Part shown: one piece after another, positions 57,517-62,396 of the stretch
Layout of the letters: each line of letters begins with the position of its first letter
Numbering within the stretch: position 1 is the first letter of the stretch
From: Escherichia coli
Lineage (GTDB): Bacteria; Pseudomonadota; Gammaproteobacteria; Enterobacterales; Enterobacteriaceae
Length of the DNA stretch: 64,000 nt
Direction: 5' to 3' (one strand)
NCBI RefSeq assembly: GCF_003018255.1
Contig: NZ_CP027440.1
The notes under the pieces: generated by a model
What the model was told of the DNA's origin: nothing
Database searches by the model: none
Seen by the model: only the letters and a program-made list of their open reading frames with translations
Made by a program: the position numbers and the translations under genes

Positions 57517-57870
57517 ATGATCGTGCAAAAAGAGCTGGTTGCTATTTACGATTATGAGGTCCCTGTACCTGAAGATCCGTTTTCCTTCAGACTTGAGATC
57601 CATAAATGCTCTGAATTATTTACAGGTTCCGTCTATCGACTGGAGCGATTCCGGCTACGTCCAACATTTCATCAACGTGATCGAGAAGATGCTGACCCGC
57701 TAATAAATGATGCGTTGATTTATATAAGAGATGAGTGTATTGATGAGCGGAAATTACGAGGTGAATCACCTGAAACTGTAATAGCAATTTTTAATCGTAA
57801 ACTACAGAATATATTCAACCAACTAATAGAATATTACTTTATTAAAGGGGGAAGCGGTTTTCCCCCTTAG
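57517..57870 (+). CDS. yehK: Small protein of unknown function YehK (3' end runs into the zor terminator hairpin)
   Basis: 117-aa ORF (MIVQKELVAIYDYEVPVPEDPF...). The last codons (IKGGSGFPP*) are encoded by the GGGGGAAGCGGTTTTCCCCC hairpin. Confidence 0.8.
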   Translation: MIVQKELVAIYDYEVPVPEDPFSFRLEIHKCSELFTGSVYRLERFRLRPTFHQRDREDADPLINDALIYIRDECIDERKLRGESPETVIAIFNRKLQNIFNQLIEYYFIKGGSGFPP

Positions 57871-57889
57871 TTGCGTTTCAATTTGCCCA

Positions 57890-57979
57890 TTACTTCAACA
57901 AATCAATCAACCGTAACAGAGCCACTAATAGCTCCAGTACAGCAATGAGCACGGTTAACTTTTGTGTCAGCGTGTCCAT
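57890..57979 (-). CDS. zorO: Zor-family type I toxin, 29 aa: MDTLTQKLTVLIAVLELLVALLRLIDLLK (copy 1; O/P assignment not determined)
   Basis: My own minus-strand translation, with an AAGGAG SD 5 nt upstream. The peptide matches ZorO of the zor-orz family (first described in O157:H7) as I recall it. A TATAAT (minus strand, 58166-58161) lies about 175 nt upstream, consistent with the long 5' UTR reported for zorO. Confidence 0.8.
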   Translation of the reverse strand: MDTLTQKLTVLIAVLELLVALLRLIDLLK

Positions 57980-58217
57980 CCGCTCTCCTTATTAAGGAGC
58001 GCAACACCAGCACCTTACCCTTACACTGCCTGTCGACACTGGTTTACGTTTGTTGAGTCGCCATGTTGCACTCCGGATCAGAGCACTACCTGCGGCACCA
58101 CCCGTCCGGTAGCCAGGACTTGAAATGGGTTCGATCCGGCGCAACTTCCCAACAGTCAGGATTATAAATCTCATTATCTTAATTGCAACACGGTCCAGCG
58201 GTGGTTATAATTCGTTC

Positions 58218-58297
58218 GTTGAGATGCCATGTTGCACTATCAGTAACTTAACATCAAAGTAGTAAATAAAAGAACCTGCCTCACCAGCAGGTTCTTT
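58218..58297 (+). ncRNA. orzO: Orz-family antitoxin sRNA, copy 1 (ends approximate)
   Basis: TTGCAA (58183-58188), a 17-nt spacer and TATAAT (58206-58211). The 5' segment GTTGAGATGCCATGTTGCACT is complementary to the zor 5' UTR at 58052-58072. Terminator AGAACCTGCCTCACCAGCAGGTTCT plus TTTTATTTT. Confidence 0.72.
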
Positions 58298-58497
58298 TAT
58301 TTTCTGCGATCTACTTTCCAGATATTTTTCGCCAATAGCCCACCATAAATATTCACATCCCGGCCAAATAGTACGTTGATTATAAAATCGATGAATTTAT
58401 AAATAAAAATGAGTTATATGATGAATTAATAAAAACAGTAATCATTTTATTAAAGGGGGAAACGGTATTCCCCCTTAGATGCGTTTCAATTTGCCCG

Positions 58498-58587
58498 TTA
58501 CTTCAACAAATCAATCAACCGTAACAGAGCCACTAATAGCTCCAGTACAGCAATGAGCACGGTTAACTTTTGTGTCAGCGTGTCCAT
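58498..58587 (-). CDS. zorP: Zor-family type I toxin, 29 aa, identical peptide (copy 2)
   Basis: The 90-nt ORF is identical to copy 1, with the same SD and the same promoter arrangement (minus-strand TATAAT at 58774-58769). Confidence 0.8.
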   Translation of the reverse strand: MDTLTQKLTVLIAVLELLVALLRLIDLLK

Positions 58588-58825
58588 CCGCTCTCCTTAT
58601 TAAGGAGCGCAACACCAGCACCTTACCCTTACACTGCCTGTCGATACTGGTTTACGTATGTTGGTACGAAACGTTGCTCTCCGGATCAGGGCACCGCCTG
58701 CGGCACCACCCGTCCAGCAGCCAGGACTTAAAATTGGTCCGATCCGGCACAACCTCCCAACGGGCAGGATTATAAATCTCATTCACTGAATTGCAATGGA
58801 GTGTGGATATGGTTATAATTTATTC

Positions 58826-58908
58826 GTTGGTACGAAATGTTGCACAATCAGCAAGTTAGCGTCATTGTAGTAAATAAAAGAACCTGCCTCACCAGCAGGT
58901 TTTTTTAT
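58826..58908 (+). ncRNA. orzP: Orz-family antitoxin sRNA, copy 2 (ends approximate)
   Basis: TTGCAA (58791-58796), a 17-nt spacer and TATAAT (58814-58819). The 5' segment GTTGGTACGAAATGTTGCACA is complementary to the zor 5' UTR at 58660-58680. Terminator AGAACCTGCCTCACCAGCAGGTT plus TTTTTTATTT. Confidence 0.72.
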
Positions 58909-59017
58909 TTACTGTGATCTGCTTTCCAGATATTTTTCGCTCAAACAACTAATGCGGCAAACATTTATTGCGCGTAAAATATCGTTTATTTCATTAATAC
59001 ATTTCAGGGATGAATAT

Positions 59018-60116: not shown

Positions 60117-62396
60117 ATGAGCGAGCCGTTAATTGTCGGCATCCGGCATCATAGTCCGGCCTGCGCCCGGCTGGTGAAATCGTTAATCGAAAGCCAGCGG
60201 CCACGATACGTGTTGATTGAAGGCCCGGCTGATTTTAATGACCGGGTAGACGAACTGTTTTTAGCCCACCAGCTTCCGGTAGCTATTTACAGTTATTGCC
60301 AGTATCAGGACGGTGCAGCCCCCGGGCGTGGTGCCTGGACGCCATATGCTGAATTTTCGCCGGAGTGGCAGGCGCTACAAGCCGCTCGTCGTATTCAGGC
60401 ACAAACTTACTTCATCGATTTGCCTTGCTGGGCGCAGAGTGAAGAAGAGGACGATTCGCCTGATACGCAAGAGGAAAGCCAGACCTTGCTGCTGCGTGCC
60501 ACCCGCATGGATAACAGCGACACCCTGTGGGATCACTTGTTCGAAGATGAAAGCCAGCAAACTGCATTACCCTCTGCACTGGCGCACTATTTTGCACAAC
60601 TGCGGGGCGATTCCCCCGGAGATGCTCTCAATCGTCAGCGCGAAGACTTTATGGCCCGCTGGATTGGTTGGGCGATGCAGCAAAACAATGGCGACGTGTT
60701 AGTCGTCTGCGGTGGCTGGCACGCTTCTGCACTGGCAAAAATGTGGCGCGAATGCCCGCAGGAAATTAACACGCCGGAATTGCCCTCGCTGGCAGATGCC
60801 GTTACAGGTTGTTATCTCACCCCCTACAGTGAAAAGCGCCTTGATGTGCTGGCAGGATACCTTTCCGGTATGCCTGCCCCGGTCTGGCAAAACTGGTGCT
60901 GGCGGTGGGGCTTGCAGCAGGCAGGTGAACAACTGCTGAAAACGGTTCTTACCCGTTTGCGCCAGCACCACTTGCCTGCTTCAACAGCGGATATGGCTGC
61001 CGCTCATCTGCATGCGATGGCACTGGCACAGTTGCGTGGTCATACACTACCGTTACGCACTGACTGGCTGGATGCCATAGCAGGCTCGCTGATTAAAGAA
61101 GCCCTGAATGCGCCGTTGCCGTGGAGCTATCGCGGCGTTATTCATCCCGATACCGATCCGATTCTGCTAACGTTGATAGACACATTAGCGGGTGACGGAT
61201 TCGGTAAACTTGCCCCCTCTACGCCACAGCCGCCTCTGCCAAAAGATGTCACCTGCGAACTGGAACGTACAGGAATCTCTTTTCCGGCGGAGCTTACTTT
61301 AAATCGCTTTACCCCCGATGGACTGGCGCAAAGTCAGGTGTTACATCGGCTGGTAATACTGGAGATCCCAGGGGTTGTGCGCCAGCAGGGAAGTACACTG
61401 ACACTTGCAGGCAACGGTGAAGAACGCTGGAAATTAACCCGCCCGCTTAGCCAACATGCGGCATTAATTGAGGCCGCCTGCTTTGGTGCCACACTCCAGG
61501 AAGCCGCACGCAATAAATTAGAAGCCGATATGCTGGACGCGGGTGGAATCGGCAGTATCACCACATGTCTTAGCCAGGCGGCGTTAGCGGGTCTGGCGTC
61601 CTTCAATCAACAATTACTGGAGCAACTCACATTATTAATCGCCCAGGAAAATCAGTTTGCCGAAATGGGCCAGGCGCTGGAAGTGCTATATGCCTTATGG
61701 CGGCTGGATGAAATTAGCGGTATGCAGGGCGCGCAGATATTACAAACGACATTATGCGCGGCCATCGATCGCACGCTGTGGCTATGTGAATCCAACGGCA
61801 GACCGGATGAAAAGGAGTTTCACGCTCACCTGCATAGCTGGCAAGCGCTTTGCCATATCCTGCGCGATCTACATAGCGGCGTTAATTTACCCGGCGTTTC
61901 TCTTTCTGCGGCGGTAGCCTTACTGGAGCGACGCAGTCAGGCGATTCATGCCCCGGCGCTGGATCGCGGCGCGGCACTTGGCGCACTGATGCGTCTGGAA
62001 CATCCCAACGCCAGTGCCGAAGCGGCGCTGACAATGCTGGTGCAATTATCCCCGACACAATCCGGCGAGGCGCTGCACGGTTTGCTGGCATTAGCCCGTC
62101 ATCAACTGGCCTGTCAGCCGGTATTTATCGCCGGTTTCAGCAGTCATTTAAATCAACTGAGTGATGCCGATTTTATCAATGCCCTGCCCGATTTACGCGC
62201 GGCGATGGCCTGGCTACCACCACGAGAACGCGGGACGCTGGCGCATCAGGTGCTTGAGCATTATCAACTGGTGCAACTTCCCGTTTCGGCACTGCAAATG
62301 CCGTTGCATTGTCCACCACAAGACATTGCACATCATCAACAACTCGAACAGCAGGCACTGGCATCGCTGCAACACTGGGGAGTTTTCCATGTCTGA
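60117..62396 (+). CDS. yehM: Large protein of unknown function YehM
   Basis: Track ORF 59949..62396. The start is ATG 60117, which is 10 nt after the yehL stop and preceded by a GAGGAAAG SD (MSEPLIVGIRHHSPACARLV...). This gives 759 aa. The body is mostly Leu/Ala-rich and helical. Confidence 0.88.
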   Translation: MSEPLIVGIRHHSPACARLVKSLIESQRPRYVLIEGPADFNDRVDELFLAHQLPVAIYSYCQYQDGAAPGRGAWTPYAEFSPEWQALQAARRIQAQTYFIDLPCWAQSEEEDDSPDTQEESQTLLLRATRMDNSDTLWDHLFEDESQQTALPSALAHYFAQLRGDSPGDALNRQREDFMARWIGWAMQQNNGDVLVVCGGWHASALAKMWRECPQEINTPELPSLADAVTGCYLTPYSEKRLDVLAGYLSGMPAPVWQNWCWRWGLQQAGEQLLKTVLTRLRQHHLPASTADMAAAHLHAMALAQLRGHTLPLRTDWLDAIAGSLIKEALNAPLPWSYRGVIHPDTDPILLTLIDTLAGDGFGKLAPSTPQPPLPKDVTCELERTGISFPAELTLNRFTPDGLAQSQVLHRLVILEIPGVVRQQGSTLTLAGNGEERWKLTRPLSQHAALIEAACFGATLQEAARNKLEADMLDAGGIGSITTCLSQAALAGLASFNQQLLEQLTLLIAQENQFAEMGQALEVLYALWRLDEISGMQGAQILQTTLCAAIDRTLWLCESNGRPDEKEFHAHLHSWQALCHILRDLHSGVNLPGVSLSAAVALLERRSQAIHAPALDRGAALGALMRLEHPNASAEAALTMLVQLSPTQSGEALHGLLALARHQLACQPVFIAGFSSHLNQLSDADFINALPDLRAAMAWLPPRERGTLAHQVLEHYQLVQLPVSALQMPLHCPPQDIAHHQQLEQQALASLQHWGVFHV

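Follow-up and report, generated by a model that had tools for sequence, protein, structure and literature searches.

When a type I toxin-antitoxin unit stands twice in tandem, does each antitoxin small RNA (sRNA) act on the toxin mRNA of its own copy only, or on both? This question is raised by a 64,000-nucleotide (nt) stretch of Escherichia coli DNA (contig NZ_CP027440.1 of assembly GCF_003018255.1, hereafter the window), of which positions 57833-58940 hold a tandem zor-orz type I toxin-antitoxin locus, located between a yehK-like gene and yehL. The locus comprises two direct repeats of about 500 nt each, with a period of 608 nt. Each repeat unit contains an open reading frame (ORF) for a hydrophobic Zor protein of 29 amino acids on the minus strand, an Orz sRNA of about 88 nt on the plus strand and two divergent sigma-70-like promoters. 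The two units are probably a zorQ-orzQ-type unit (copy 1) followed by a zorO-orzO unit (copy 2), with each Orz predicted to repress only its own zor. The initial annotation of the window had read the two sRNAs as orthogonal antitoxins, and this interpretation is supported by the gap between cognate and non-cognate binding energies, by a scale calibrated on published constructs and by the covariation of the pairing partners; for the sister pair OrzO/OrzP, orthogonality has been shown experimentally (Wen et al., 2014; PMC3919570).

Because zor is encoded by the minus strand and orz by the plus strand, identical plus-strand text in a zor 5′ untranslated region (UTR) and in an Orz amounts to complementarity between the two RNAs. 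The partners concerned are the following:

58052 to 58072, minus strand: Orz target site in the 5′ UTR of zor copy 1, q type, about +82 to +102 of the 174-nt UTR
58218 to 58305, plus strand: Orz sRNA of copy 1, Q type, about 88 nt, with nucleotides 1-21 as the pairing seed GUUGAGAUGCCAUGUUGCACU
58660 to 58680, minus strand: Orz target site in the 5′ UTR of zor copy 2, o type, identical to the zorO site of O157:H7 Sakai
58826 to 58913, plus strand: Orz sRNA of copy 2, OrzO, with V1 (+9 to +11) reading GAA as published

The copy 1 target site is the counterpart of the 3′ part of the published EAP/standby region (PMC5397157). The four 21-nt strings quoted in the initial annotation all read exactly so in the window, and the 18-nt run that it noticed in copy 2 (58660-58677, corresponding to mRNA +85 to +102) is borne out: twelve pairs, one G·U at position 13 and five further pairs are followed by a mismatch, a pair and a mismatch at positions 19, 20 and 21. 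Its more general statement, that sRNA and UTR match within a copy if G-U wobble is allowed, applies to copy 2 but not fully to copy 1, where 6 pairs are followed by a true mismatch, A·A at position 7, then by a G·U (position 8) and 13 Watson-Crick pairs. The cross pairs, aligned in the same register, are each broken by two 2-nt gaps (in one at positions 5-6 and 10-11, with G·U at positions 8 and 13 and a mismatch at position 19; in the other at positions 6-7 and 10-11, with G·U at position 5 and a mismatch at position 21). Scored against shuffled seeds, the cognate duplexes reach z-scores of -6.8 and -6.5 and the non-cognate duplexes -1.7 and -2.9. In the whole window, with up to 3 mismatches allowed, the 20-mer of each Orz matches nothing but itself and the UTR site of its own copy, and none of 100 shuffles of the 20-mers reaches two matches there.

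The initial annotation had named equal cognate and non-cognate duplex energies as a result that would speak against its reading; in the four sRNA/UTR combinations the energies are clearly unequal. Hybridization of a 25-nt Orz seed with the target site yields -34.4 and -31.3 kcal/mol for the cognate pairs and -16.0 and -23.4 kcal/mol for the non-cognate pairs. Unrestricted RNAduplex runs of the whole Orz against the whole zor mRNA led to long interior loops and inflated opening energies, and a core-site model and cofolding were used instead. In the core-site model, totals that include the opening energies (full-length and processed Δ28 mRNA) range from -16.3 to -22.3 kcal/mol in the cognate and from +1.9 to -11.2 kcal/mol in the non-cognate combinations. 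The cofold partition function of the full-length RNAs gives binding free energies of -17.6 to -23.3 kcal/mol for cognate and -6.0 to -10.3 kcal/mol for non-cognate combinations, the latter comprising -7.0 to -10.3 kcal/mol for OrzO with zorQ and -6.0 to -7.5 kcal/mol for OrzQ with zorO.

The energy scale was calibrated by scoring in the same way the constructs tested by Wen et al. (2014). The published repressors fall between -26.1 and -31.3 kcal/mol (wild-type OrzO, -31.3; OrzP-V1, -26.6; OrzO Δ3, -26.1), and the published non-repressors lie at -23.6 (OrzO-V1), -18.9 (wild-type OrzP) and -17.8 kcal/mol (OrzO Δ6). On this scale, the cognate pairs of the window score -33.7 and -31.3 kcal/mol, and both cross pairs rank among the non-repressors, OrzO on zorQ at -23.4 and OrzQ on zorO at -15.7 kcal/mol. 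The functional rule derived from the same experiments demands either 15 or more continuous pairs or, with one internal mismatch, 17 or more (PMC3919570). Both cognate pairs pass, copy 1 with a 6(1)14 arrangement and copy 2 with its 18-nt run, and both cross pairs fail. Insulation is predicted to be asymmetric, with OrzO on zorQ placed near the functional boundary.

The comparison of the two copies points in the same direction. The initial annotation held the repeat units to be nearly identical except in the pairing block. The blocks are indeed enriched in differences (7 of 21 positions in the UTR, 6 of 21 in Orz), but the units differ at 58 of 500 positions overall (11.6%). Orz differs between the copies at positions 5, 6, 8, 10, 11 and 21, the UTR at positions 5, 6, 7, 10, 11, 13 and 19. 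At positions 5, 6, 10 and 11 the same substitution occurs on both sides, and such compensatory changes are improbable by chance (P about 8e-4). As the differences at positions 5-11 are compensated in the UTR of each copy, each Orz is predicted to repress its own zor only. A wider set of six distinct natural cognate allele combinations has 92% of its cells paired, with double-sided changes at positions 5, 6, 9, 10 and 11; the observed covariation score is reached in 0 of 500 shuffles, and slid registers fall to 28-40% paired.

Divergence elsewhere in the units is uneven. Differences are densest in the orz promoter spacer (58189-58205 vs. 58797-58813), where 10 of 17 positions differ (P about 1e-6), more than in the pairing blocks. 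This spacer is type-specific, being identical among E. coli O units and different in Q, P and R units; promoter strength or regulation might in this way differ from one Orz type to the next. The zor ORF and proximal UTR (57890-58036 vs. 58498-58644) are near-invariant, with 0 of 90 differences in the ORF, synonymous sites included, and 2 of 72 in the proximal UTR. Given the 11.6% overall divergence, this suggests gene conversion or a strong constraint on the segment at the RNA level.

The two units belong to different types. In copy 2, Orz reads GTTGGTAC-GAA-ATGTTGC, and with its +1 at 58826 the bases at +9 to +11 are the published V1 of OrzO (PMC3919570). Its pairing blocks, G·U included, are identical to those of zorO-orzO of O157:H7 Sakai, to which the unit as a whole is identical at 469 of 480 positions. 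Copy 2 is, by sequence, zorO-orzO. An assignment of copy 1 to zorP-orzP, as in the arrangement of strain EDL933, was ruled out: V1 is GCC rather than ACG, and the protein has T3, compared with T3S in ZorP. Copy 1 is instead a third type, with the seed GUUGAGAUGCC and GCC at +9 to +11. Its pairing blocks recur in units that encode ZorQ A20S (two loci; five of the 22 Q units), although the copy 1 protein itself carries the ZorO sequence (A20). On the strength of these common blocks, copy 1 is most likely of the zorQ-orzQ type of Shore et al. (2024; PMC11264685), the only paper found that names zorQ-orzQ as a toxin-antitoxin pair.

Types were also assigned in 17 complete E. coli genomes, 6 Escherichia genomes from a species collection and about 120 metagenome contigs. 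The sample contains the Orz seed types P, O, Q and R plus one rare O variant, and the UTR types p, o and q plus two rare variants. With the UTR type in lower case, the Orz type in upper case and a slash between units, the arrays are pP (33), orz-only P (33 complete and 9 cut at a contig end), qQ/pP (16), oO (13), qR (13), oO/pP (9) and qQ/oO (4, this window included). Apart from a few chimeric units, neighbouring Orz and UTR match as cognates throughout the 146 sources, and no sampled array contains two units of the same Orz type. The Q/O arrangement is rare, with 16 genomes at at least 99% identity vs. 890 for O/P. Within a type, both pairing blocks are identical at 21 of 21 positions even in E. 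whittamii, where the distal UTR retains 103 of 117 positions and the promoter spacer 12 of 17. Blocks that are hypervariable between types and frozen within them are what a specificity determinant is expected to leave in the sequence. Other Escherichia species have O and P types whose pairing blocks are identical, and the types are therefore old lineages rather than products of a recent duplication in this strain. The predicted orthogonality accordingly did not arise by recent divergence of duplicates in this strain.

Several observations on the natural repertoire stand beside these counts. Among natural cognate pairs, those of types Q, P and R all have a true mismatch at position 7 (58058/58224 in copy 1), and only those of type O are paired there. 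The resulting 6(1)n geometry is that of the engineered OrzO 6(1)11, a full repressor, which demonstrates that a mismatch at position 7 is tolerated (PMC3919570, PMC5397157). The fourth Orz seed, R (GTTGGGGCGCCATGTTGCATA), occurs in one individual locus and 12 metagenome loci and pairs with a q-type UTR as 6(1)13. It is found in single-copy loci only, so that two different Orz seeds serve the q-type UTR. The orz-only loci (four individual loci and about 30 metagenome loci, K-12, BL21 and others among them) always have a P-type seed and lack both the zor ORF and the target site, in agreement with OrzPmg of Shore et al. (2024; PMC11264685). Matches in Paenibacillus and Ruminococcus contigs in the pattern scan were set aside as chance, since they are without the Orz terminator.

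The proposed mechanism follows published work on zorO-orzO. In each unit, a gene for a 29-amino-acid membrane toxin and an Orz of about 88 nt would be transcribed divergently, with one palindromic -35 box in common. The first 18-21 nt of each Orz would anneal to the 5′ UTR of its own zor, at about +82/+85 to +102, thereby stopping ribosome loading and triggering RNase III cleavage, and no toxin would be made. Specificity would reside in Orz positions 5-11, matched by the compensatory differences in the UTR of each copy. OrzO is known to bind the 3′ end of an exposed standby-like region, inhibiting translation and promoting RNase III-dependent decay; its first 18 nt are enough for repression, and V1 decides which zor is recognized (PMC3919570, PMC5397157). 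The toxicity of overproduced Zor, its rescue by Orz and the contribution of RNase III have been reported for zorO-orzO of EDL933 only (PMC3919570, PMC5397157). Beside the observed anatomy of the locus, its cognate pairing, the compensatory changes, the energy gap and the conservation of each type stands the prediction that OrzQ would repress zorQ and not zorO, and that OrzO would repress zorO and act on zorQ not at all or weakly.

The same pattern could arise if the copies were old paralogues that drifted apart while compensatory evolution preserved the complementarity of each pair, an unrepressed toxin being lethal; the absence of cross-reaction would then be a by-product and not itself selected. 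The 11.6% overall difference agrees with this account, as do a promoter spacer more divergent than the pairing blocks, type-specific differences that run through the distal UTR and the body of Orz, and an origin of the O and P types that predates speciation within Escherichia. Drift does not, however, readily account for pairing blocks that, in contrast to their variable flanks, stay the same within a type from species to species, for the clustering of between-type changes at positions 5-11, which decide specificity experimentally (PMC3919570), or for sampled two-copy arrays that never combine two units of the same type. Incidental divergence is considered unlikely. Far less probable still is that the Orz 5′ differences reflect other trans-encoded mRNA targets of each type, which the zor UTRs have merely followed. 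Loci with orz of type P and no zor are frequent (33 complete and 9 cut in the sample); their conservation and their expression in K-12 (PMC11264685) point to roles other than toxin repression. Orphan Orz genes also persist in chimeric arrays. Against this, the window contains no other near-complementary site for either seed, no trans target of an Orz has been published, and the double-sided compensatory pattern is explained no better in this way than by cognate pairing.

A third alternative accepts the pairing and questions its exclusiveness. OrzO, the stronger cross-binder, might partly buffer zorQ, making the two units a hierarchical rather than an insulated pair. The hybrid of OrzO with zorQ (-23.4 kcal/mol) is clearly stronger than that of OrzQ with zorO (-15.7 kcal/mol) and comes near the published functional boundary. 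It nevertheless fails the pairing rule, with a longest run of 9 pairs and two 2-nt gaps, and a published OrzO V1 mutant of equal energy (-23.6 kcal/mol) failed completely (PMC3919570). Such partial cross-talk is improbable, at about the same level as incidental divergence or slightly below it. Some points nonetheless weigh against strict insulation of a Q unit from an O unit. OrzO on zorQ falls short of the weakest published repressor (-26.1 kcal/mol) by no more than about 2.7 kcal/mol and equals the non-repressor OrzO-V1, so that partial cross-repression of zorQ could occur at high OrzO levels. The energies are thermodynamic predictions that do not include kinetics, and Wen et al. saw position-specific effects, the first base of V1 being critical (PMC3919570). 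Divergence between the copies extends beyond the pairing blocks and may in part be drift of old paralogues. Finally, the Q label of copy 1 is indirect, obtained via A20S-encoding units with the same block and not from published Q letters. The preferred reading remains that of two units in which each Orz is matched to its own zor.

The order of units offers a further perspective. From yehK to yehL it is always Q, then O, then P, in the window, in 12 further individual loci and in the metagenome loci with two or three copies, and one complete genome has a three-unit array of Q, O and P. This constancy would fit an origin of the two-copy arrays by deletion from an ancestor with three units. Chimeric units occur in two complete genomes, JNE23-001 (qQ/oO/qP) and SL112 (pQ/pP); the arrays are those of NZ_AP045064.1 (Orz +1 at 990, 1599 and 2207) and NZ_CP043486.1 (Orz +1 at 1707 and 2315). 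In both genomes, each zor UTR type still finds a cognate Orz at another place in the array, and the neighbouring Orz is orphaned. Similar chimeras lie at contig ends in the metagenome contigs L069 and L074, for which no complete genome matches at at least 99% identity. Their dismissal as assembly artefacts was only partly upheld, since similar chimeras occur in the two complete genomes. As a lead from two cases, this suggests a shuffling of the blocks by recombination, with selection for coverage across the array. A tentative and rather doubtful extension holds that at least four specificity classes (Orz O, P, Q and R; UTR o, p and q) are shuffled by recombination, that the array and not the adjacent pair is selected, and that the Q/O locus of the window would be a deletion derivative of an ancestral Q/O/P array.

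The zor-orz locus was first described in O157:H7 EDL933, where its position at yehI/yehK-yehL was reported (Fozo et al., 2010; PMC2887945). In the window, the region 57833-58940 is 100% identical to E. coli DETEC-S792, from whose annotation the yehK-like and yehL flanks were read. Rfam family RF02083 (OrzO-P) matches both Orz copies, at 58225-58298 and 58833-58906, with 90.2 and 88.9 bits vs. a gathering score of 60. The Rfam scan found no matching family for the zor 5′ UTR; sub-threshold matches to STnc370 (58236-58303 and 58846-58911) and mir-263 (61005-61090) were judged to be noise. The remaining elements are these:

57845 to 57868, strand not assigned: terminator-like G+C hairpin at the 3′ end of zor copy 1
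57890 to 57979, minus strand: zor copy 1 ORF, 29 amino acids, MDTLTQKLTVLIAVLELLVALLRLIDLLK, protein identical to ZorO of O157:H7 Sakai
57985 to 57990, minus strand: ribosome-binding site AAGGAG of zor copy 1, mRNA +164 to +169, as published for zorO (PMC5397157)
58161 to 58188, minus strand: zor copy 1 promoter, -35 TTGCAA at 58188-58183, -10 TATAAT at 58166-58161, inferred +1 at about 58153
58183 to 58211, plus strand: orz copy 1 promoter, -35 TTGCAA at 58183-58188 in common with zor, -10 TATAAT at 58206-58211
58453 to 58476, strand not assigned: terminator-like hairpin at the 3′ end of zor copy 2
58498 to 58587, minus strand: zor copy 2 ORF, 29 amino acids, nucleotide-identical to copy 1 throughout
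58593 to 58598, minus strand: ribosome-binding site AAGGAG of zor copy 2, +164 to +169
58769 to 58796, minus strand: zor copy 2 promoter, -35 at 58796-58791, -10 at 58774-58769
58791 to 58819, plus strand: orz copy 2 promoter, common -35 at 58791-58796, -10 at 58814-58819

Transcription starts were derived from promoter spacing and from agreement with published numbering, with +1 of zor placed to give a 174-nt UTR. The ribosome-binding site then begins at +164 and the AUG at +175 in both copies, matching the published zorO, in which the ribosome-binding site occupies +164 to +169, the EAP region extends from +73 to +102 and OrzO binds the 3′ end of the latter (PMC5397157). One palindromic TTGCAA (58183-58188 and 58791-58796) provides the -35 box of both zor and orz promoters, and the divergent promoters consequently overlap back to back. 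On the yehK side, the yehK-like ORF (57517-57870, 117 amino acids; a hypothetical protein in DETEC-S792) runs into the terminator hairpin of zor copy 1. The length and annotation of yehK vary with the type of the adjoining zor-orz unit, at 318, 321 or 354 nt or frameshifted. Neither zor ORFs nor orz sRNAs are annotated in any of the RefSeq genome records examined, O157:H7 Sakai included; the locus is missed by automated annotation.

Compared with zorO-orzO/zorP-orzP of EDL933 (PMC2887945, PMC3919570, PMC5397157), the window has the same O unit, for which copy-specific pairing and specificity through a variable block are published. In contrast to EDL933, its partner is not a P unit (V1 = ACG; ZorP T3S) but the third type, and the O unit occupies the second position, next to yehL, whereas in EDL933 it comes first. 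With zorQ-orzQ of Shore et al. (2024; PMC11264685), where a third zor/orz type is recognized, copy 1 has in common the pairing block of units encoding ZorQ A20S, but it differs in a protein that carries A20. The systems shoB-ohsC, tisB-istR-1 and dinQ-agrB resemble zor-orz in a divergent sRNA gene, short seed pairing well upstream from the ribosome-binding site, a long processed 5′ UTR and a standby-site mechanism (PMC5397157). A sub-threshold Rfam match of Orz copy 1 (58218-58302) to ohsC, with 35.4 bits vs. a gathering score of 50 (E = 0.014), hints at a common ancestry of Orz and OhsC. These systems nevertheless have other toxins and other seeds; shoB-ohsC and tisB-istR-1 are mostly single copy in E. 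coli (in a survey that did not cover dinQ-agrB), and paralogue discrimination thus arises differently there. A further comparison is the multicopy type I toxin-antitoxin family Sib/Ibs of E. coli. Several of its paralogous pairs reportedly coexist in one genome, and short discriminating stretches restrict repression by each sRNA to the cognate toxin. A Sib RNA is cis-antisense to ibs over its full extent, whereas Orz is divergently encoded and pairs through about 18-21 nt only.

That pairing is copy-specific is already known in principle. Wen et al. (2014) found that OrzO represses zorO and OrzP cannot, and that V1 swaps and compensatory zorO mutations transfer specificity (PMC3919570). At the population level, Shore et al. 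(2024) described a variable pairing region, cognate pairing potential retained in 99.8% of 2,439 loci, and variation that "may prevent crosstalk" (PMC11264685). The present analysis restates the former for O and P and the latter remark, and what it adds is small: a rare Q/O array with a predicted asymmetric insulation, in which OrzO on zorQ lies near threshold. Because the combination is rare and the predicted insulation asymmetric, the Q/O array may serve as a convenient natural test of the published pairing rules. The published principle it would illustrate is that, in a type I system, the insulation of duplicated toxin-antitoxin copies depends on a few nucleotides at the antitoxin sRNA's 5′ end.

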